Source: Armatimonadota bacterium (GTDB taxonomy: Bacteria > Armatimonadota > UBA5829 > DTLH01). Taken from it: 64,000 nt of DNA. Under the pieces are notes generated by a model that was not told where the DNA came from, made no database searches, and saw only the letters and a program-made list of their open reading frames with translations. The position numbers were made by a program, and so were the translations under genes. Below are positions 4,316-38,892 of the stretch, one piece after another. The DNA lies in the NCBI GenBank assembly GCA_038207085.1, contig JBBRAE010000007.1, forward strand, positions 64,655-128,654, read 5' to 3'. Every line of letters starts with the position of its first letter. Position 1 is the first letter of the stretch.

Positions 4316-5223
4316 AGCGGCATCCCGAAGAGCATCACGTCGAGCTCATCGCCAGCGTCAATCGCCTCCGTCCTCTCAGGAACGACTACCAGACAGTTCG
4401 CTTCGACCATATCCTTCATAGATCCACGCCCAAGCGTCCTCACGGCAAGGTGTCCGGCGACAAACGCTGCGACTCCGGGGAGAAACCCTCTGCGCTCCCA
4501 CCCCCAGCCAAGGCTCTCCGCGACCACTGCTCGCGCTTTCGTGTGCGCCCCGTAACGCCGCCCGAGCATCGCGACAAGAGCAGGCCGCACGCAGAGCTCA
4601 AAAGCAACCATCGCGCCGACTGGCTCCCCAGAAAGCACGAACACCGGCTTTCCGCCAAGCAGAGCAAAAGCGGTATCCGTACCGGGATCGATCGGCAACC
4701 CATCGAAAACAATCTCAGCCGACTCCCGAATCACTTCGCGCACGCAGTCGCGCTTGCCGTTTAGTGCACCACCTGCAACGACGATCAGGTCGCTCATCCG
4801 CGCGGTGTGAAGCGCCCTTCGGACCGATTCGACACTGTCTCCGGCGTGTGGAAGCTTGCCAAGATCGCAATCAGACGAAAACACGCGCCCAGCGAGGCTG
4901 TAGCGGTTTATATTTCGGAACTTGCCGTCTTCAACGGTTTCCAGGACATCGACAAACTCATCGCCCGTCGTGACAATCGACACCCTAGGCCGCCTGTGCA
5001 CGAGAATCCCCGCGCGACCGATCTCGGCGAGCATCCCCATCTCGGCTGCGCCAATCACCACACCGCGCTCGATCAAGACACGTCCGTCTTCCGAGACGAT
5101 TTCCTCGGCCAGAGTCCGTCCGGCGGTGTTTATGACCCCGGCCTTCTCAGTCTCTACCGTATGAACCGCCGAAACAATCGCCGATGTGGCGTCATCAAGT
5201 GAAATCAGGCTCTCTGTAAGCAT
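4312..5223 (-). CDS. moeA: MoeA/gephyrin-like molybdopterin protein, internally shortened
   Basis: GRTLAEEI, RRPRVSIVTTGDE and C-terminal ANCLVVVP motifs; 303 aa; no SAMDGYA segment. Confidence 0.7.
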   Translation of the reverse strand: MLTESLISLDDATSAIVSAVHTVETEKAGVINTAGRTLAEEIVSEDGRVLIERGVVIGAAEMGMLAEIGRAGILVHRRPRVSIVTTGDEFVDVLETVEDGKFRNINRYSLAGRVFSSDCDLGKLPHAGDSVESVRRALHTARMSDLIVVAGGALNGKRDCVREVIRESAEIVFDGLPIDPGTDTAFALLGGKPVFVLSGEPVGAMVAFELCVRPALVAMLGRRYGAHTKARAVVAESLGWGWERRGFLPGVAAFVAGHLAVRTLGRGSMKDMVEANCLVVVPERTEAIDAGDELDVMLFGMPL

Positions 5224-29747: not shown

Positions 29748-31798
29748 CGACCAAACGCCGCGCCTGCGACTACTGCGGCCTCGTCTTCACAGGCACAGGG
29801 TACGGCGCAGGGGATCGCCACTACTGCTGCTGCGGCTGCTACCTCGCGGAACGCATAGTCGGCGATAAATCCGGCGACGGCATCGCCTCTTGGATTCTCA
29901 TAAGACTCGGCGTCGGCGCGTTTCTATCCATGAATGTGATGATGATCAGCCTGGTCCTCTACGCGAGCAATTCGGGCGAAATCGGAGCCGCAACCGTACG
30001 AGCGCTTCGCTGGATTATGCTCCTGCTCTCAACCCCGGCTGTGATCATCCAGGGCATCCCCTTTATTGCAGGCGCCACCAAGTCGCTCAGGCAGGCGAAA
30101 CTCAGCACCGATATGCTGATCGCCACCGGTTCGGTAGCCGCGTTCGCCGTAAGCGCCGCAAACGTCGTGCGCAACTCAGGAGAGGTCTACTTCGACACCG
30201 CGACGATGCTGCTTTTCATCGTGACGCTCGGTCGATTGATCGAAGCCGCCGCCAAGAACCGCACCTCCGCCTCCATCCGTGAACTCGTCGACCTAACCCC
30301 CGCAGTCGCACGTGTTATACGCGACGGCATCGAACAAGAAATCCCATCAAGCGAGGTGCGAGAAGGCGACCTGATGATCGTCCGCACCGGCGAACGCATC
30401 CCATCCGACGGCGAGATCGCCTCCGGCGAATGTCTGATCGAAGAATCAGCCTTCACCGGTGAGAGCCGCCCAAGGTCCGCGAGCCCCGGCGACCGTGTCT
30501 ACGGAGGAAGCGTCAACTGCGACGGTCTGATCGAGGTCCACGCGACCGCCGTTGGAGGCGAAACCCTGCTCTCACGAATCCACGACCTCGTCCACCAGGC
30601 CCAAACAGAGCGAGCGCCAATCGAGCGGCTGACCGAGCGAGTTTCGACCATATTCGTCCCCTTAATCTGGCTGATCACCATCTGCTGCGCCGCCTATTGG
30701 GCCTACTTCCGGGGAAATATCGAGCAGGCCGCCATGTCCTCCCTTGCCGTGCTCGTCGTAGCCTGCCCCTGCGCTCTTGGGCTCGCCACCCCGATGGCGA
30801 CGTGCATCGCAATCGGCAAAGCCGCGAGAGCCGGTGTCCTGATCAGGTCCGGCGAGGTGCTCGAAGCCCTTCCAGGTGTCACATGGGTCTTCTTCGACAA
30901 AACCGGCACGCTCACCGACAACAACCTCACCGTCACGGGCCTGCGGACGCTGCCCGGCGAGTCCGAGGCAGACGTATTGACCGCCGCCGCATCGCTTGAG
31001 TCTGCCTGCACCCATTCCATAGCCCGGGCGGTCGTAGCATTCGCAGGCTCCCGTGGACTAGCGCCAATCCCTGTCGAAAACTTCCGAGCGATCCCAGGCA
31101 GAGGCGTCACAGGAACAGTCAAAGACAAGAGCATAACGGTCGGCTCGCTCGCTCTCATTCGCGAGTCCCACCAAGTCTCACCAGCGCTGATCACAGACGA
31201 CGACCTGACGGCGACCTACATCGGCTGGGAGGGCCACGCGCGGGCATCGTTCACCCTCGCCGACACCCCGCGCCCAGAGTCAAGCCAGACCATCACAAGA
31301 CTCAACACGCTTGGCCTCCACTGCGCCCTGATCTCCGGCGATCAACCCGCACCGACTGCGAGAATCGCCCGCGACCTCGGTATCACCGATACCCGCGCCG
31401 AACTCACCCCCGAGCAGAAAGCTGATGCCGTCCGGGCTGCCAGAGACAGTGGAACAGGCTTGGTCGCAATGGTCGGGGACGGGATAAACGACGCTCCCGC
31501 GCTTGCCGAAGCCGATGTTGGCGTCGCCACCGGCACAGGCACGGACCTGGCCCGCGAGGCAAGCGATGTGACGCTTCTGGGGGACGACCTTTCGAGGATT
31601 CCGTGGACAATCGAGCTCGCGCGGAGAACCTATAGCGTCATCCGTCGCAACCTGTTCTGGGCGTTTTTCTACAACTGCATCGCCGTGGTGTTCGCGTTTT
31701 TCGGCTACGTGCATCCCCTGCTTGCCGCGTCCGCGATGGTCCTTAGCAGTTTCTTTGTTATCGGAAGCTCACTCTCGCTCCTGCGAGCCGACCCCTAG
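29744..31798 (+). CDS. ccoI: Heavy-metal (Cu) P1B-type ATPase, CcoI/FixI-like
   Basis: CDYC/CCCGC N-terminus, TGES, ACPCALGLA, DKTGT, GDGIND; TTG start 29744 overlaps the upstream stop. Confidence 0.9.
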   Translation: MTTKRRACDYCGLVFTGTGYGAGDRHYCCCGCYLAERIVGDKSGDGIASWILIRLGVGAFLSMNVMMISLVLYASNSGEIGAATVRALRWIMLLLSTPAVIIQGIPFIAGATKSLRQAKLSTDMLIATGSVAAFAVSAANVVRNSGEVYFDTATMLLFIVTLGRLIEAAAKNRTSASIRELVDLTPAVARVIRDGIEQEIPSSEVREGDLMIVRTGERIPSDGEIASGECLIEESAFTGESRPRSASPGDRVYGGSVNCDGLIEVHATAVGGETLLSRIHDLVHQAQTERAPIERLTERVSTIFVPLIWLITICCAAYWAYFRGNIEQAAMSSLAVLVVACPCALGLATPMATCIAIGKAARAGVLIRSGEVLEALPGVTWVFFDKTGTLTDNNLTVTGLRTLPGESEADVLTAAASLESACTHSIARAVVAFAGSRGLAPIPVENFRAIPGRGVTGTVKDKSITVGSLALIRESHQVSPALITDDDLTATYIGWEGHARASFTLADTPRPESSQTITRLNTLGLHCALISGDQPAPTARIARDLGITDTRAELTPEQKADAVRAARDSGTGLVAMVGDGINDAPALAEADVGVATGTGTDLAREASDVTLLGDDLSRIPWTIELARRTYSVIRRNLFWAFFYNCIAVVFAFFGYVHPLLAASAMVLSSFFVIGSSLSLLRADP

Positions 31799-31875
31799 CC
31801 CGCTTTATTCGTGAAGCGAATAAAGCTCTCGCTAGCAAAGCATTATTCACGCTCCTCGTGAATAATGCAGGCTAG
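31796..31875. repeat. Dispersed ~80-bp double-hairpin repeat
   Basis: TAGCCCGCTTTATTCGTGAAGCGAATAAAGC...GCATTATTCAC...GTGAATAATGCAGGCTAG. Confidence 0.85.
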
Positions 31876-33063
31876 AGCGATCTGGTTCCAGAGCTGTTTT
31901 CCAAATGGCGTCATCGGCCCGTTCTGATACTGGCTTGCCATCTGCCGAAGCACCTCCCGCGCAAGGTTGGCGTCTTTATACACGCTCCAGTAGCAGAGCG
32001 CCATTCGGTAAAGCGACATCTCAGCGTCAGAAGTCCCAATGAACTTGCCTGAGACGATGCGGTACACCTCAAGGGCACGGGTATACTGACCCGCTCGCTC
32101 CAGATTCCCCGCAAGGCGAATCAAATGAAGCGACCGATAGGTGTCCCACCGACCATTGATGTCGACAAGATAGTAGCCCACAAAGTCCGGGTCTTTGTCG
32201 ATCATCCCCGGCCCGGCTTTCGCCATCGCCTCATCGAGCATGGACATAGCATTGTGCTGCGCCGCGGGTCGAGCGAGGGCCCTCAGCAGCACGGGGTTTC
32301 CGGGGTCTTCATCCACCATCCCCATCAGCACGCTAAGCGGCAGATCGTTAGGGTCTTTGGTATCGGCTTGGATAGCTCTAACGTCCGAAACCGCGGCGCT
32401 GTCGCGTTTGACTCTATAGACAACACAAGCTGCGAGCCCGGCGATCGCACCGCCGACGTGGCAGAAGTGAGCGACCCCTCCGCCACCAAGCGACCGCATC
32501 AGAAACCCGTTCAGCACCTCAAGTGCGCAGAATCCGCCGAGCACCCAAATCGCCGCAACCTCCCACACCCCATACCATATCCAGATCAGCGGCCAGATGA
32601 AATACGCGACGCAGACCGTGCTCCACGAGTAGATAAACCAGTAAGCGCCGAACACTCCGAATATGCAGCCCGACGCGCCAATCAGATATGTGGGCTGTCC
32701 GTCCGGCCCCGTGCCGCTCATCACACCGTGCAAGAGAGCCCCCAAGAGCCCCGCAAGCAGATACAGCCCGAGATACTTCCCCGCCCCCAGCCTGTCCTCC
32801 ACCGGCGGCCCAAACACCCACAGCCCCACCATATTGGAGATAATGTGCGTTGGCCCGGCGTGCAAAAACGCCGAAGTGAGGATATTTATCGCAGGCGAGT
32901 TCCCAAGCGAGAACCCGTACGCCCGCATCACATCCTCACGAATCTGAAGCAGCGATTCAGTCGTGAAGATATACACGATCACATTAATCAGAATAATGCA
33001 GAGCGTAACATACGGAAAGTGCTTTATTGGGTTTTTAACGCGAAACGGAAACAGAAAGAACAA
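31843..33063 (-). CDS. Rhomboid intramembrane protease with C-terminal TPR-like domain
   Basis: SAFLHAG..HIISNM, IGASG, AHFCHVGG; helical C-terminal region. Confidence 0.88.
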   Translation of the reverse strand: MFFLFPFRVKNPIKHFPYVTLCIILINVIVYIFTTESLLQIREDVMRAYGFSLGNSPAINILTSAFLHAGPTHIISNMVGLWVFGPPVEDRLGAGKYLGLYLLAGLLGALLHGVMSGTGPDGQPTYLIGASGCIFGVFGAYWFIYSWSTVCVAYFIWPLIWIWYGVWEVAAIWVLGGFCALEVLNGFLMRSLGGGGVAHFCHVGGAIAGLAACVVYRVKRDSAAVSDVRAIQADTKDPNDLPLSVLMGMVDEDPGNPVLLRALARPAAQHNAMSMLDEAMAKAGPGMIDKDPDFVGYYLVDINGRWDTYRSLHLIRLAGNLERAGQYTRALEVYRIVSGKFIGTSDAEMSLYRMALCYWSVYKDANLAREVLRQMASQYQNGPMTPFGKQLWNQIALACIIHEERE

Positions 33064-33114
33064 GCCGCCCTACACCCTCTCATGCACCAAGTGTAACACT
33101 TCGATTACGGACAG

Positions 33115-33260
33115 CCACAGCCCTTCCAACTACTGCTGCGTTGCAACAGGTGTCCGAGGAACACCCGAGCATCCCACTATTCGTCCCAATCCTCAGCCCA
33201 ACTACTGCTGCGTTGCAACCGTCAAGACAGAGGTTCATTTTGAGATCGAAAACCTCAGCC
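33115..33260 (-). CRISPR. Mini CRISPR-like array: 8-nt repeat remnant, 33-nt spacer, 29-nt repeat, 43-nt spacer, 33-nt degenerate repeat
   Basis: Minus strand: GGCTGAGG (33260-33253); GTTGCAACGCAGCAGTAGTTGGGCTGAGG (33219-33191); GTTGCAACGCAGCAGTAGTTGGAAGGGCTGTGG (33147-33115); unique sequence between them; next to a RuvC nuclease gene. Confidence 0.75.
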
Positions 33261-33345
33261 TGTTCAGGGTCCGGCACATCTGTGTTCACGCGAACCGCCA
33301 GTAATTGCGCCACACGAATACTGTCCGCGCAGTCCTGCTTGTCAA

Positions 33346-33541
33346 TGGGCGCATGCAGCCTTAGTTGCGCTGTTCCCGCTGCAGCGGGAAACAATGGTTC
33401 CGCCCGCAGTACCCGTTCAAAGGTATGGTTTCCCGACAGACTAGCTGTCTTCCGAAATACCACAGAGCGGCATGACGACGACAATGGGACGAGCTCCCGA
33501 CGCCGTAGCTTCGGGCAGCCTCCTGCCGCCGGTATGCGGAG
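33346..33541 (-). ncRNA. Candidate tracrRNA/scaffold RNA with anti-repeat
   Basis: Minus-strand CAGCGCAACTAAGGCTGCATGC (33372-33351) is complementary to the repeat at 18 of 23 aligned positions; several hairpins (e.g. TTCCCGCTGCAGCGGGAA); boundaries uncertain. Confidence 0.55.
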
Positions 33542-35002
33542 CTAGTCCGCACACATCTGTTGAGCAAATTCTTGCCAGGTTCTATTCTTAGCTGATTTGT
33601 TCTTCTTCTTTACTTCTCGACATTCCTGCATGTAGAGATATTTTCGACCGATATTAATCGCCGCAACCTCGTCTGAGTTCTCGTGCTCGAAGCTGCACGT
33701 AACGCAGTGGAACTTGAACCGAGTGACCGCACCCCCCGCCCTCACCAAACGGTTTCGCTTGTCGACGCATCCGCAATTTGGACAGGTTTGGCTCGTATAC
33801 GCCGCTCCGACCTCGTAAACCGGGACACCAGCAGCCTTGCATTTGTACAGAATGACTTCTCGAAATGTGCCGTAGGTGTTCGACTTCCGCCCGTGGTTAC
33901 TCGGCGATTTGCTCGCAGACGAATTGGCCCTGCGCATGTTGGACAAATCCTCGATCACTACAACACTCTCATTCTGCCGCGCAAGGGTGAGTATGTTGTT
34001 AACAGTGATATGAACGATCTCTTTATTAATTCGCTTGTATCTAAACCTGTAATGCCCCCCATTCGCCTGGGCTTTGGCGGTCTTCTGAGTAATGCTCTTG
34101 ATCTGATCCACATGCAGCCCGTTGACGCTCACTGATTCCAGCAGTTCGCCGCTTGTGGTTAATACAGAGGCTGCCGCAATTCGCTTCTTGCCGAGATCGA
34201 CACCAATAATAGTACGAGCCGGAGCAGATTTTCGTTCTGGAATCTCAAATGTGACATAGAGAAAGAACCGCCCGTCGCGCTCGACGACCCGGCCAGTCGC
34301 AGGCCGATATGTCTCCAACTTCCTCTGAAGCCATTTGTTCATTGCCAGCGGAAAGAGTCTACAAGGCTTCTTACGCGCAACCACTCGATCTTTAGTTCCA
34401 ACGATCACCAAATCATCTGAAGCGGGTGAAAAACCTGAGTTGCCGGATTCAATGTACAGCCCCGCAAAGTAGTTTCCACTAGCGGACCTCGCAATATAGA
34501 ACCCCTTCTCCTTTTTGTAGTAGTAGAAGTCCAGCGGCAGGTATTCGGACTTCTTGCCACAGCCGGACACCAGCCCTGAAAGTGTTGAATACTCCATTTC
34601 CGAAGTCGCTACATGACCGTTAAGCGTAAAGTCATCCAGCAACGCGGGTAAGTCATCTTCTCCGACGACACGGCCCGTTGGAAAACCCGGATCAAAATCT
34701 TCCTGTTTGAGCGCAAAATAGGACTTAAGTTGCGAATCCAACGAGCGATACACGGCGTGTTTCATCGTCGGCTCCATAAGATGAAGCTCCGGTATCGTTT
34801 TCAGATTGTCATATACCCACTGAGTAAGACGTTTCTTGCCTTCGACCCCGTTAATAATCTCCTCAAGCTCATCTGCACAACCGGCAGCCATTTTCAAGAA
34901 ACCGGCTACCGTCGTAGTCCACAGTTCCATCGCCGTCTTAAGAGCCCTACCCTTTTCACCGCGCGTCTGCAATAGCTCAAATGCGTAGGTTTGAAATGAC
35001 AT
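33542..35002 (-). CDS. TnpB/Cas12f-like RNA-guided RuvC nuclease (486 aa)
   Basis: RuvC-I IIGVDLG, RuvC-II VVVIEDL, Zn ribbon YTSQTCPNCG...HCVTC, RuvC-III NSDEVAAINI. Confidence 0.9.
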   Translation of the reverse strand: MSFQTYAFELLQTRGEKGRALKTAMELWTTTVAGFLKMAAGCADELEEIINGVEGKKRLTQWVYDNLKTIPELHLMEPTMKHAVYRSLDSQLKSYFALKQEDFDPGFPTGRVVGEDDLPALLDDFTLNGHVATSEMEYSTLSGLVSGCGKKSEYLPLDFYYYKKEKGFYIARSASGNYFAGLYIESGNSGFSPASDDLVIVGTKDRVVARKKPCRLFPLAMNKWLQRKLETYRPATGRVVERDGRFFLYVTFEIPERKSAPARTIIGVDLGKKRIAAASVLTTSGELLESVSVNGLHVDQIKSITQKTAKAQANGGHYRFRYKRINKEIVHITVNNILTLARQNESVVVIEDLSNMRRANSSASKSPSNHGRKSNTYGTFREVILYKCKAAGVPVYEVGAAYTSQTCPNCGCVDKRNRLVRAGGAVTRFKFHCVTCSFEHENSDEVAAINIGRKYLYMQECREVKKKNKSAKNRTWQEFAQQMCAD

Positions 35003-35086
35003 AGTGTCAGCGCCCCCTTCAATACCGGCAGATTACCGTATATGGCGTATCCTTGATTAGTTGCCGGCAAGCCTGCCCGCTATAAT

Positions 35087-35116
35087 ACTGTAATACAGTT
35101 GCCCAAGCATTGTCAA
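35087..35116 (-). promoter_or_regulatory. Putative sigma70 promoter of the nuclease gene with an overlapping palindrome
   Basis: Minus strand TTGACA-18 nt-TACAGT; palindrome ACTGTA-T-TACAGT (35087-35099) covers the -10. Confidence 0.45.
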
Positions 35117-35148
35117 TTGTAAGACTGGACACCTGTCACCTTGTTGCA

Positions 35149-36183
35149 TCATCGCACCCACACAACATTCCCTGCAATCTCTACCTCAACATCCAGAAAC
35201 TTCTGCACCGTCCAGACGTTGGTTCGTAGATGCTCGGTGATCTCTTCGGCTGAGAACTCGCTCTCGCCATCGGCAAGCGCGGCTGGGACGATGAGTTGAT
35301 CGGCCATGTGCTTGTCGAGCGCCGCGCCCGAACCGTGCCAGGCCAAAAACTCCTCAGCCGCCTCGTGTCCCACCTTCTCAGCTCGTTTCCCAAGCGCCCC
35401 GAGCGAGGTGAACCCCGCCTTCACATCCCCCGCGCTGTAGAGCACAAAGGCAACTGTCCCCTTACCCGGCGACGGGTACTCGGTCGTTTCCCCCACACAC
35501 TCGATCCCCGCCTCCCGAAGCCGCTCAGCAACCGAGGAAAGCTGCCGGTCAGCGATCGACATCGGCAGGTTCGACACAGCCGAAGTCACGTGCACACTCC
35601 CCTCGGGTCTGTCGACGAGGCGAAGCGGACGAAGCGAAGTCGCGGGCAATATCTCCACATCGATCTGTCCACCACCTATTGGGTAGTACCCGGCCTTCAC
35701 CACTCGGTAATGCGTCAGCACGCCCATTCGCGAGAGCACCGGGAGATAGACATCGTCGACATAGTTGGAGTTCGGACTCATCGGCACATGCGTTCCGCCG
35801 CGGATCGTCACGCGCGAGCGTTTGTCCGTAAGGGCAAGCGGCAAGAGCACGGTCTGAAGTATCAGGTTGACAGCCCCCGCGGACGCTTTGATGTCAGAGA
35901 CGTCGAAGCGATAATCCCCCGCTTGCGTCTTCCCGGGGCGAAACTCAAGCGTCCCGCTCCCAATGGAGTCGCCGGAGAGACTTCCATCGCAAATATCGGC
36001 AACCGCGCGGGCAGCGGTGATGTGCTGGGGTTGAAGCCCCGGCCTCACGCGCCCAGCCCTGATGCGCTCGATCCTGACAGGCCGCCCGAGAATAGCCGAA
36101 AGCGAGAGACTGGTGCGCAGAATCTGCCCGCCGCCCTCGCCGTAGCTTCCATCTATAACAAGAACCTCGCCTCTTGCAGTCAA
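35149..36183 (-). CDS. rtcA: RNA 3'-terminal phosphate cyclase
   Basis: DGSYGEGGGQILR, PGLQPQH, GGTHVP, GYYPIGGG, HMADQL, ITEHLRTN. Confidence 0.95.
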   Translation of the reverse strand: MTARGEVLVIDGSYGEGGGQILRTSLSLSAILGRPVRIERIRAGRVRPGLQPQHITAARAVADICDGSLSGDSIGSGTLEFRPGKTQAGDYRFDVSDIKASAGAVNLILQTVLLPLALTDKRSRVTIRGGTHVPMSPNSNYVDDVYLPVLSRMGVLTHYRVVKAGYYPIGGGQIDVEILPATSLRPLRLVDRPEGSVHVTSAVSNLPMSIADRQLSSVAERLREAGIECVGETTEYPSPGKGTVAFVLYSAGDVKAGFTSLGALGKRAEKVGHEAAEEFLAWHGSGAALDKHMADQLIVPAALADGESEFSAEEITEHLRTNVWTVQKFLDVEVEIAGNVVWVR

Positions 36184-36293
36184 ATCCGTCCACCTTTCCG
36201 GAATAGTATAGAAAACTTCCCGGAAAGGCTTCGGATATCCTGCCTGTGTCGCTATCCGCGCCAGCCCATTCGCGGGCCAAAGGTTGCTGCGGG

Positions 36294-36374
36294 TTAGCCC
36301 GCTTTATTCGTGAAGCGAATAAAGCTCTTGCTAAGAGAGCATCATTCACGCTTCACGTGAATAATGCGGGTTAG
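36294..36374. repeat. Dispersed ~80-bp double-hairpin repeat
   Basis: TTAGCCCGCTTTATTCGTGAAGCGAATAAAGCTCTTGCTAAGAGAGCATCATTCACGCTTCACGTGAATAATGCGGGTTAG. Confidence 0.85.
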
Positions 36375-37447
36375 CGAGTATTCTCTTTGAACTGCATGTC
36401 GAGCGGCATTTCCTTCAGCATGACGGTCGCGCTAACGCGTTTTCCGTCGCGAATCAGGCTGACCTCCATGCTGTCGCCGACGTGCTTGTCACGCAGCTGT
36501 TTTTGAAGATCGCCGCCGTCCTCGATGGACGTGCCGTTAGCCTTGACGATGATATCGCCCTTCCTGATCCCCGCTTGCTCGGCGGGGCCACTCCTGACGA
36601 CATCGGCGACGATCACCCCTCGGGCCGCAGACAGTTTGAACACTCGCGCGACCCCTGGAGTCACGTCGCCATAGCTGATCCCGATCCAGGGCACGATCAC
36701 CCGCCCATAAGCGAGCACGTCACTGATCACCGTCTGCGCCGTGTTGATCGGCACGGCGAATCCTACACCCTGACCTCCGCCCCCACCGACAAGAGCGGTG
36801 TTGAGCCCAATCACCCGCCCGCCGGAGTCGAGAAGCGGCCCACCAGAGTTGCCGGGGTTGATCTCGGCATCGGTCTGAATCAGGTTCATAAGCGCCGATC
36901 CCCCACCGGGGATGCTCCGATTGAGCGCGCTCACCACACCGACCGTCACTGTCCGTTCGAACCCGTATGGGTTGCCAATCGCGATCGCCATCTGCCCCAC
37001 CTGCAGCGCATCGGAGTCCCCAAGCGTCGCCGTCGGCAAATTGGTGGCGCTCACTTTGAGCACAGCCAGATCGACCCGTGGATCCCCGCCAAGCGCCTTT
37101 GCCGAATATTCGCGACCGCTTGAGAGTGTAACTTTGATAGACTTCGCCCCTTCGACGACGTGGTTGTTCGTGAGAATGTATCCGTCCGGCCTCAAAATGA
37201 CTCCGGACCCGATAGCGGTGCCGTCTGAGGTCTCCGCGGCAAGCGCGACTACACTCGGACCAATATTCCGAGCGATATCGATGACTCGCTGCTCGTTTGT
37301 CAGAAGCACTGCCCCTCCCGCGCCTACGGGAGGACCACTGACGGCCGCCGTTCGTATAACTGATGGCCCAGACAGGTAACCCGCGAGAAACAGGACAAGC
37401 ACTACGGTACCTGATCGGACCTTTCCAAATGTCTCAGTTTTCATCAC
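36371..37447 (-). CDS. HtrA/DegP-like S1C serine protease with PDZ domain
   Basis: TNNHVV, DLAVLK, IQTDAEINPGNSGGPL, C-terminal PDZ. Confidence 0.95.
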   Translation of the reverse strand: MMKTETFGKVRSGTVVLVLFLAGYLSGPSVIRTAAVSGPPVGAGGAVLLTNEQRVIDIARNIGPSVVALAAETSDGTAIGSGVILRPDGYILTNNHVVEGAKSIKVTLSSGREYSAKALGGDPRVDLAVLKVSATNLPTATLGDSDALQVGQMAIAIGNPYGFERTVTVGVVSALNRSIPGGGSALMNLIQTDAEINPGNSGGPLLDSGGRVIGLNTALVGGGGGQGVGFAVPINTAQTVISDVLAYGRVIVPWIGISYGDVTPGVARVFKLSAARGVIVADVVRSGPAEQAGIRKGDIIVKANGTSIEDGGDLQKQLRDKHVGDSMEVSLIRDGKRVSATVMLKEMPLDMQFKENTR

Positions 37448-37545
37448 CTGATTCCCCCCGTGGGAGAATTAAAGGCAACCCCCCCGGCCTGCCTTCAATA
37501 GTTAGTTACCCATTTTGTGAAAACTGAGATACGAATAATTTGAAG

Positions 37546-38892
37546 TTACTTGCCAATGCAGAAATCGCTGAAGATTCGCTCGACGAGATCATCCGAAGCT
37601 GTATCCCCTGTGATCTCCCCAAGGCTGGCTCTAGCGGCTACAAGATCAATCGGCCAAAGGTCCATCGATGCGCTGAGTTCCACGCCCTCTATAACCCGAT
37701 GCAGGCTCTCCGCCGCCGACACAAGCGCCTGACGATGCCTGATATTGCCGACAAACACCCCTTCGGAGGGCCCACCACGAAGCGCCGCCTCGGCGATTCT
37801 ATCCTCAAGCGCCTCGATCCCCTCCCCGGTCTTGGTCGACACCCTCACCCACGCGGCGTCGATGGCCGCAGCCGCAATATCAATCTTGTTAGCGACAACA
37901 ATGGCCCCACCTCCGGCTCGCGCAAGAATCTCCCTGTCTTCGTCCGTCACCCCAGTTGAAGCGTCAAACACCACAAGCACGATCTCCGCCGCCGCCATCG
38001 CCCGCTCAGTGAGCTCCACCCCAATACGCTCAACCTCGTCCGAAGTCTCACGCAAGCCCGCCGTATCGGTCGCGACAACCGGAATACCCCGAATGTTAAC
38101 GGTCTCTTCGATGGTATCGCGCGTAGTCCCCGGGACCGGTGTAACGATCGCCCGAGCCTCGCGAAGAAGCGCGTTCAGCAGGCTAGACTTGCCGACGTTC
38201 GGTCTGCCCACGATCGCAAGGCTTATCCCCTCCCGGTATACTCTGCCCCGCTCGCTCGACTCAATCAGCCGCTCGATCTCACGGACATGCCCCCGAACTT
38301 CCGACGAAATAACCGCGTCGTCGGGCTCCTCTACGTCATCTGGAAAATCGATTGACGCCTCGATCCGCGCAAGTATCGACAAGATCCCAGTGGCAACCTC
38401 CGAAACCCTGAGCGAAAGCTCTCCCCCAAGCTGCCGAAGCGCCAGCCTCTGAGCCTGATCGGTGCGCGCCCGGATGATATCGTTCACAGCCTCGGCCTGC
38501 GCAAGGTCGATTCGCCCGTTTAGAAAAGCCCTTTTGGTAAACTCCCCCGGCCCCGCTGGAGATGCGCCAGCGGCAAACACCGCCCCAAGCACCCGACGAA
38601 GCGTCACCGACCCACCGTGGCACGATATCTCGACTACATCCTCACCAGTATAGCTCCGAGGCCCCCGAAAGACGGTCACAAGCACGTCGTCGATCACCTC
38701 GCCCGACGCCGAGTCAACAAGCTCCCCGTGGTGCGCGCTGTGCGAGACAAACCCCTCGACGCCGCCAAACACCCGTCCAGCCACCAAAAACGCCTCCGGC
38801 CCGCTAAGACGAACGACACCAATCCCCGCCGGTCCAACCGCCGTCGCAATCGCCGCTACCGTATCTGTAAGAGGTTCTCGATATTCACCCAT
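37546..38892 (-). CDS. mnmE: tRNA modification GTPase MnmE
   Basis: GEFTKRAFLNG, GRPNVGKSS, GTTRD, DTAG, FCIGK C-terminus. Confidence 0.97.
   Translation of the reverse strand: MGEYREPLTDTVAAIATAVGPAGIGVVRLSGPEAFLVAGRVFGGVEGFVSHSAHHGELVDSASGEVIDDVLVTVFRGPRSYTGEDVVEISCHGGSVTLRRVLGAVFAAGASPAGPGEFTKRAFLNGRIDLAQAEAVNDIIRARTDQAQRLALRQLGGELSLRVSEVATGILSILARIEASIDFPDDVEEPDDAVISSEVRGHVREIERLIESSERGRVYREGISLAIVGRPNVGKSSLLNALLREARAIVTPVPGTTRDTIEETVNIRGIPVVATDTAGLRETSDEVERIGVELTERAMAAAEIVLVVFDASTGVTDEDREILARAGGGAIVVANKIDIAAAAIDAAWVRVSTKTGEGIEALEDRIAEAALRGGPSEGVFVGNIRHRQALVSAAESLHRVIEGVELSASMDLWPIDLVAARASLGEITGDTASDDLVERIFSDFCIGK

Follow-up and report, generated by a model that had tools for sequence, protein, structure and literature searches.

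A probable tracrRNA with long and short anti-repeats beside a rare Cas12f-like nuclease gene of Armatimonadota

In a 64,000-nucleotide stretch of an Armatimonadota bacterium genome (assembly GCA_038207085.1, contig JBBRAE010000007.1; hereafter the window), the minus strand from 33552 to 33348, lying between a gene for a miniature nuclease and a CRISPR array, very probably encodes the trans-activating CRISPR RNA (tracrRNA) of a miniature, Cas12f-like type V CRISPR system that stands alone. Comparison of five loci indicates that this proposed RNA of about 205 nt (33348-33552) combines a conserved, covarying five-stem scaffold with a long anti-repeat at its 3' end and an internal short anti-repeat of 6 nt. 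Pairing with the repeat in two places is the ordinary design for this class of enzyme, but here it occurs in a rare, undescribed bacterial lineage. A first-pass annotation, made from the sequence alone, had proposed a tracrRNA at this place; its interpretation is partly supported, as the core tracrRNA reading holds while the repeat length and the short pairing that it gave fail.

The comparison spans the window and four other loci (L005, L007, L008 and L009), the nuclease of L009 being 39% identical to that of the window. All five share one cassette, in which a Cas12f-like nuclease of ~490 aa is followed downstream by conserved non-coding sequence of ~205 nt, then a leader and a genuine CRISPR array, and the distance of the array downstream of the nuclease is equal across them. 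Single-base indels between close homologues exclude a conserved open reading frame (ORF) from the non-coding stretch. The nuclease gene of the window (33542-35002, minus) is recognised from its ORF and from Pfam as Cas12f/TnpB-like and encodes 486 aa (protein P0001). The window array, likewise on the minus strand, consists of an intact 37-nt repeat (33183-33219, GTTGCAACGCAGCAGTAGTTGGGCTGAGGATTGGGAC), a sole 35-nt spacer (33148-33182) and a degenerate terminal repeat (33111-33147), whose first 22 nt are identical and whose 3' end, including UGGGAC, is gone. The intact repeat shares its length and ends with those of L005, L007 and L008, and the L009 repeat is 30 nt long. Counted in repeats, the arrays comprise 2 in the window, 5 at L005, about 14 at L007 and 6 at each of L008 and L009.

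The long anti-repeat (33351-33372, minus) pairs with repeat nucleotides 3-26. Direct reading of the sequence bears out the match on which the tracrRNA had first been proposed: the plus strand reads GCATGCAGCCTTAGTTGCGCTG and, with one gap allowed, agrees with GCAACGCAGCAGTAGTTGGGCTG, a minus-sense segment of the repeat, at 18 of 23 positions. When the 218-nt region is set against repeat nucleotides 1-27, a duplex of 19 bp and -30.0 kcal/mol results. The co-fold suggested as a check in the first-pass annotation, of minus-strand 33541-33346 with a 29-nt repeat, gains -16.8 kcal/mol, a value reached by none of 300 shuffled repeats (mean -8.6, standard deviation 3.0) and, when only the 22-nt anti-repeat was shuffled, again by none of 300 (mean -9.0, standard deviation 2.1). 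Taken alone, the window lies modestly to clearly beyond chance, and it is the comparative evidence that, in our assessment, settles the anti-repeat. Cognate duplexes of 16-22 bp occupy the same place in all five loci, even where the sequences differ completely (L005: 22 bp, -25.2 kcal/mol; L007: 20 bp, -32.3 kcal/mol; L008: 21 bp, -31.7 kcal/mol; L009: 16 bp, -27.3 kcal/mol). Non-cognate anti-repeats reach only -8.0 to -18.8 kcal/mol on the L005, L008 and L009 repeats. Between the window and L008, four pairs have changed on both sides and are still paired.

A second contact is made by GUCCCA (33485-33490, minus), whose partner beside the guide is UGGGAC, the final six bases of the repeat. An unbiased scan with the last 6 nt of the repeat placed this contact at tracrRNA column 71 (33490-33485), where 30 of 30 positions over the five loci are Watson-Crick pairs, compared with 22 of 30 at the runner-up column. 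The pairing takes the states GUCCCA:UGGGAC (three loci), GUUUCA:UGAAAC (L005) and GUCUCA:UGAGAC (L009). Both anti-repeats change along with the repeat of their own locus, which was the outcome looked for when covariation across homologues was proposed as a check. The GUCCCA strand lies one base away from stem 1 (3' arm), and no Watson-Crick partner for it exists in cis; the short pairing crosses stem 1 and is therefore a pseudoknot by topology. The first-pass annotation had instead assigned the short contact to a CCTTT stretch pairing with GAGG of the repeat. The stretch exists (minus-sense 33423-33419), but the proposed pairing scores 17/20, tied with another column, and shows zero compensatory changes; the L007 repeat reads GCGG, yet the L007 tracrRNA keeps CCTTT, and CCUU belongs to an internal tracrRNA helix (helix 7) that is 100% paired. 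The repeat had been taken as 29 nt instead of the actual 37 nt (33219 to 33183), and its 3' end, which holds the real partner, was consequently missed.

The remainder of the proposed RNA forms a scaffold. The RNAalifold consensus of the five-locus alignment (A2) contains 60 pairs in 8 helices, of which 16 pairs show compensatory changes. Paired cells make up 96.5% of the consensus fold as opposed to 89.2% in shuffles, and the 16 compensatory pairs compare with 5.4 +/- 1.8 in shuffles, 0 of 500 shuffles reaching the observed values; when the partners were slid by 1-3 columns, 1-4 compensatory pairs were left. Because the alignment that was scored also supplied the fold under test, these controls are inflated. 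Four invariant G-U pairs (columns 32:83, 35:80, 41:69 and 97:156) are compatible solely with the minus, nuclease-sense strand. A covariance model of the tracrRNA found one site in each of 5 of the 36 genomes of the order, these being the nuclease-bearing ones, and none in the other 31; since the five hits are the training sequences, the informative part is the absence elsewhere. Rfam, searched over 30000-38000 at E <= 1, gave no match in the tracrRNA region, the sole hit being an unrelated snoRNA model elsewhere (E = 0.84).

All of the stems lie on the minus strand. Stem 0 (33534-33552, helix 1) is a hairpin spanning the nuclease stop codon (TAG, 33544-33542); its 9 pairs, 4 of them changed on both sides, are 100% paired, and it covaries even at a synonymous Cys codon. 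Across the last 20 nuclease codons (33542-33600), identical codons are used at 4 of 9 conserved residues among four homologues, compared with 30 of 226 in the rest of the gene. This synonymous-site conservation, small as the numbers are, suggests a start of the RNA within the ORF, in the manner of omega RNAs; the 5' end may extend further into the nuclease ORF. Stem 1 (CGGCGGCA/UGUCGUCG) with its inner hairpin (33476-33531, helices 2-3) encloses the short anti-repeat; helix 2 comprises 8 invariant pairs and helix 3 comprises 15 pairs, 6 of them compensatory. The stem 2 domain (33400-33470, helices 4-7) is a long-range helix around the GACAG/CUGUC hairpin and an ACCU/GGGU helix, in which the CCUUU of the first-pass annotation (33419-33423) lies, helix 4 having 11 pairs with 4 compensatory. 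The GACAG/CTGTC hairpin (33426-33440), one of two hairpins pointed out in the first pass and present as described, is invariant in four loci. The other, TTCCCGCTGCAGCGGGAA at 33373-33390, corresponds to stem 3 (UUCCCGCUGCAGCGGGAA, helix 8), which stands immediately 5' of the long anti-repeat; of its 6 pairs, one has changed in compensation from G-C to A-U in L005. Modules of the scaffold also come and go: L005 has an added 18-nt hairpin before stem 3 (about 4620-4640), and the GACAG hairpin is absent from L009.

Several observations weigh against the tracrRNA reading or limit its reach. Of 1000 dinucleotide shuffles, 23 form a duplex at least as strong as the -30.0 kcal/mol of the window, as do 6 of the 1160 other 218-nt tiles along it; on duplex energy alone, then, the window stands out only modestly. 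Among the close loci (the window, L007 and, in part, L008 and L005), pairing across loci is about as strong as cognate pairing: the window anti-repeat binds the L007 repeat slightly more strongly than its own (-31.4 versus -30.0 kcal/mol), the L008 anti-repeat does likewise (-33.9 on the L007 repeat versus -31.7 on its own), and the L005 anti-repeat is almost as strong on the window repeat as on its own (-24.8 versus -25.2 kcal/mol). RNAalifold pairs part of GUCCCA internally (columns 38-40 with 72-74, with one-sided G-U changes only), which competes with the pseudoknot. The alignment holds only five sequences, four of them close kin. Consensus scans of the window, L007 and L008 gave no tracrRNA promoter or terminator, and we infer the strand, ends and separateness of the tracrRNA. 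The predicted structure of P0001 is poor (mean pLDDT, the predicted local distance difference test score, 62.6). The window array is one spacer and a broken terminal repeat, and no protospacer was found for the window spacer or the L007 array in the collections searched: the window spacer has no match in the phage collection and none elsewhere in the genome at <=3 mismatches, the L007 array region has none among phages or plasmids, and every match of the L007 array to five genomes falls outside the spacers (the window array repeat and its flanks; a repetitive element and a conserved gene beyond the array end).

These last observations bear on the possibility that the tracrRNA is real for the family while the window locus itself is decaying or idle and gives little or no defence. 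A single spacer without a detectable target and a terminal repeat without the pseudoknot strand, compared with 5 to about 14 repeats in the homologues, are what such a locus would present. We nevertheless consider this improbable, given that the ORF is intact with all catalytic and zinc-binding residues present, that the tracrRNA helices and both anti-repeats are intact, and that a single repeat-spacer unit suffices for one functional CRISPR RNA (crRNA). Short arrays are, in addition, reported in the available text of PMC10691335 as typical of TnpB-proximal type V subtypes.

A very improbable alternative is that the RNA is a one-piece scaffold of a TnpB, akin to an omega RNA (reRNA) carrying its own guide, with an incidental array and no pairing in trans. 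Some features do recall the omega RNA of IS200/IS605 TnpB: the scaffold takes in the last codons of the nuclease gene and runs on past its 3' end, a pseudoknot next to the guide stands beside stem 1 as in the omega RNA described in the consulted portion of PMC10097598, and the repeats and leader appear borrowed from a type I-C array. TnpB can also excise a guide or omega RNA from its own mRNA, as stated in the part of PMC10278001 available to us. The top NCBIfam model for P0001 is guided_TnpB, whose 98.7 bits fall under the cut-off of 100, and the IS200_TnpB model scores 42.8 bits against a cut-off of 425. Such a scaffold, however, leaves unexplained why both anti-repeats change with the repeat of each locus; GUCCCA lacks a Watson-Crick partner in cis, and the array at constant distance downstream in all five loci argues against its being incidental. 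Unlike the omega RNA, scaffold and guide here would be two base-paired RNAs, with the guide drawn from a leader-bearing CRISPR array. The split guide that the first-pass annotation favoured over a one-piece RNA is accordingly upheld, every one of the five loci having a genuine array and an anti-repeat that pairs with its own repeat over 16-22 bp.

The surroundings of the cassette also depart from those of IS200/IS605 or IS607 TnpB, in that the nuclease gene is single-copy in the source genome and no transposase was found beside it. Pfam recognised no transposase family on 14 neighbouring ORFs across the five loci, 2 of the 14 having no family at all. The genes flanking the window locus are unrelated housekeeping genes by Pfam (P-type ATPase, rhomboid protease, RtcA, HtrA-like protease and MnmE), with no cas1, cas2 or cas4 adjacent to the nuclease; the neighbours at the other four loci are GrpE and PNPOx, none recognised, PGI, and LacI with an efflux protein. 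Because the neighbouring genes differ at every locus, the cassette is the conserved unit and RtcA is incidental; RtcA was rejected as a functional partner on this ground.

Just as improbable as the one-piece scaffold is the proposal that the region is a structured 3' untranslated region or a set of DNA-level leader signals without a guide role, its 18/23 match being a decayed inverted copy of the repeat: the lack of a tracrRNA promoter or terminator in the scans, a transcription that we infer only, and the modest duplex statistic of the window would fit it, but it accounts neither for the 16-22 bp of complementarity retained to repeats diverged beyond recognition (L005, L009), nor for a second covarying contact of 6 bp, nor for 16 compensatory pairs in an 8-helix fold sized and laid out like Cas12f and TnpB guide scaffolds.

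Considering the tracrRNA reading as preferred, the system can be placed among known type V effectors. Like Cas12f1 (type V-F; AsCas12f, Un1Cas12f1), it pairs a miniature effector bearing RuvC and a zinc ribbon with a multi-stem tracrRNA of ~200 nt, a long repeat:anti-repeat stem with an internal mismatch, and a guide-adjacent 6-bp short repeat:anti-repeat that is a pseudoknot by topology. The short repeat:anti-repeat is 5-7 bp in Cas12b, f1, g and l (PMC11246509). In the available text of PMC10097598, the Cas12f pseudoknot is repeat:anti-repeat 1 (R:AR-1) and stem 5 is repeat:anti-repeat 2 (R:AR-2), and the pseudoknot and stem 4 of the omega RNA correspond to these two. Unlike in Cas12f1, the tracrRNA would start inside the ORF, the repeats are type I-C-like and the RNA has no Rfam match.

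The protein places itself similarly. P0001 has the size (486 aa, against about 400-700 aa), the RuvC D-E-D triad and the CxxC...CxxC zinc ribbon by which Cas12f is recognised; its Pfam matches include a Cas12f1-like_TNB zinc ribbon (E = 3.1e-17) and RuvC_1 (E = 8.4e-08), with PF07282 and PF18516 both exceeding their cut-offs, and the triad D269/E351/D444 and the zinc ribbon C407/C410/C433/C436 are invariant across 24 relatives. Cas12f proteins are its best sequence and fold matches. In a profile search against solved proteins, AsCas12f (E = 4.7e-17), OsCas12f (5.3e-16) and Un1Cas12f (1e-14) ranked above ISDra2 TnpB (2e-05) and Cas12n (9j09, 1.5e-05). Foldseek placed AsCas12f at rank 1 (E = 2.8e-13, template modelling (TM) score 0.40/0.45), with TM scores to Cas12f proteins of 0.40-0.46 for a query model whose mean pLDDT is only 62.6. 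The sequence alignment to Cas12f is confined to the C-terminal half (E = 4.7e-17, approximately residues 207-457). Pfam recognised no family over the N-terminal ~230 residues, and the N-terminal 235 residues retrieved only unnamed or unrelated small-domain clusters from the ESM Atlas. The sole Cas12f model matched in NCBIfam, NF049972 (Cas12f2), is failed at 89.9 bits against a cut-off of 450. The system would thus seem to work like a Cas12f dual guide though failing the one curated Cas12f model that it matched.

It also shares with Cas12n (V-N), TranC and V-U6 to V-U45 the layout of a stand-alone TnpB-derived effector of about 400-550 aa with a downstream array, a tracrRNA and no adjacent cas1, cas2 or cas4. 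The Cas12n tracrRNA is reported, in the accessible part of bioRxiv 10.64898/2026.03.27.714800, to overlap the ORF. Similarity to Cas12n (9j09, E = 1.5e-05) and to LaTranC (9jfq, Foldseek rank 38) is weak in this comparison through solved proteins. Published accounts already count about 50 independent origins of Cas12 and 40 candidate V-U groups (PMC10691335, in the portion available), and TranC clades have been numbered (bioRxiv 10.64898/2026.03.27.714800; PMC13565253, both in part). Literature searches brought up no description of this clade; the only type V entry noted for Armatimonadetes, in the available text of PMC11641405, is the 860-aa Cas12l/CasPi, and the names MCX6345279, JAPLCU, JACPPP and Armatimonad gave no hit in one PNAS supplement file.

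The nuclease is very rare. A search of 5.8 billion proteins returned 188 of 8000 scored candidates at E <= 1e-05, among which only five are full-length relatives (71, 67, 67, 38 and 39% identity), the remainder being TnpBs that match the C-terminal half. All named records are Armatimonadota metagenome-assembled genomes. The nuclease was found in 5 of 36 genomes of its order; in a sample of the phylum, 6 of 401 genomes match it, the sixth by its C-terminal part only. A profile search of 1.84 billion representatives revealed a wider but thinly populated protein family, with 76 proteins at E <= 1e-30, many of them full-length singletons of 460-560 aa; none of ten looked-up members carries an informative name. 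A metagenome scan with the family alignment returned, as the best 80 of 490, distant TnpB-like loci throughout (26-35% identity, C-terminal half), and a search with the tracrRNA DNA motif found only the four already-known loci in genome contigs and none in viral contigs.

Two further observations concern the wider family. In the genome of L009, a 211-aa open frame (G293:C318:15271-15882, locus L011) matches only nuclease residues 2-194, at 34% identity, and may be a copy, stand-alone or truncated, of the N-terminal region that is specific to the family. In Motilimonas eburnea (L114, 2045-2501), a CRISPR-like array of 8 units with a 60-nt period and about 28 nt conserved per unit lies immediately upstream of the start codon of P0130, a wider-family member 25% identical to P0001. 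The wider nuclease family may be linked to arrays repeatedly.

The CRISPR leader of the window (33220-33347, minus) is conserved among the homologues and begins with TTGACA (33345-33340) and the motif CUGCGCGGAC; consensus scans found no full promoter in it, TTGACA being without a convincing -10 box, and no terminator for the array. A candidate sigma-70-type promoter for the nuclease, TTGACA-18-TACAGT (35087-35116, minus), scored 10/12 in a consensus scan and is a pattern match only. The L005 leader (about 4770-4830) contains three tandem units of ~20 nt (ATGAGCTGC..GATCTTA), and GGGCTGTGCT is present twice in the L007 leader.

Repeat and leader both resemble those of a type I-C system. The source genome carries a complete one on contig C62 (G000:C62, L101, 915-8707), with Cas3, Cas5d, Csd1, Cas7, Cas4, Cas1 and Cas2, and the repeats of its array, each 37 nt long, recur every 72 nt, which equals the 37 + 35 of the window. 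Between the type V repeats of the four close loci and the I-C repeats of three genomes of the order, 17-23 of 37 positions are shared, mostly in the first and last ten bases, a similarity matched by 0 to 149 per 20000 shuffles. The type V and I-C leaders share collinear motifs, the best being CTGCGCGGAC (E = 0.016), along with GTTCGCG, GCGTGAACA and ACAGATGTG. Together, the shared repeat length, period, ends and leader motifs suggest spacer acquisition in trans and an I-C ancestry of the type V array. On a more speculative note, we tentatively entertain the possibility that in this clade a type V system arose recently and independently, when a TnpB/Cas12f-like gene, its guide scaffold still starting within its own ORF, captured a copy of an I-C leader and array. 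Complementarity to the I-C-type repeat would then have evolved in its omega-like RNA, turning it into a tracrRNA, and the repeat would have kept the recognition ends of Cas1-Cas2 (GTTGCA... and ...GAGGATTGAAAC), now also a pseudoknot strand, while spacers would still come from the I-C module in trans.

The tracrRNA reading implies a working cycle that can be sketched as follows. The tracrRNA would derive from the 3' end of the nuclease transcript, starting within the last codons, and the array would be transcribed separately from the leader. The duplex of tracrRNA and pre-crRNA would be trimmed into repeat-spacer units, in which GUCCCA and the six repeat bases that abut the spacer on its 5' side would form the guide-proximal pseudoknot, a hallmark of Cas12f and TnpB guide RNAs. 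The 486-aa RuvC/zinc-ribbon nuclease would bind this dual RNA and cut DNA complementary to the spacer beside a protospacer-adjacent motif (PAM), and new spacers would probably be supplied by the type I-C Cas1-Cas2-Cas4 module elsewhere in the genome.

Two other repeats were noted around the locus. An 80-nt element with two hairpins (stems of 10 and 12 bp) occurs at 31796-31875 and 36295-36374, the copies being 89% identical. These direct repeats were considered as mobile-element ends of the locus and rejected, since the element is a genome-wide repeat: it is intergenic, often directly after stop codons, and among its 43 matches in the genome 41 run nearly the full length with 93-100% identity; it looks REP- or MITE-like (repetitive extragenic palindrome; miniature inverted-repeat transposable element). 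Separately, the first 22 nt of the CRISPR repeat match G000:C13:45919-45940 (L003, about 1501-1522) at 19 of 22 positions. This match lies in asd, an aspartate-semialdehyde-dehydrogenase-like ORF, at the codons of the N-terminal Rossmann motif; it is mRNA-sense, fades past 22 nt and was taken as chance, for which our own estimate is about 0.02 expected per genome.

Here, our results provide a comparatively validated parts list for a very rare 486-aa nuclease, comprising the ~205-nt tracrRNA with both anti-repeats, the 37-nt repeat and the side on which the spacer lies. With the parts list complete, a single-guide RNA can be designed directly, as the first-pass annotation had anticipated; a version built on its 29-nt repeat would lack the pseudoknot strand, a design error that the corrected repeat and pairing avoid. 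A tracrRNA that starts in overlap with the ORF bears on how an omega RNA may split into tracrRNA and crRNA, a course proposed in the available portions of PMC10097598 and PMC13565253, and the resemblance of leader and repeat ends to I-C is relevant to the supply of spacers to stand-alone type V arrays. If the capture of an I-C array by a TnpB/Cas12f-like gene proves true, this clade would offer a case from nature of 'insertion next to a pre-existing array', a route to Cas12 origins hitherto discussed without being documented.

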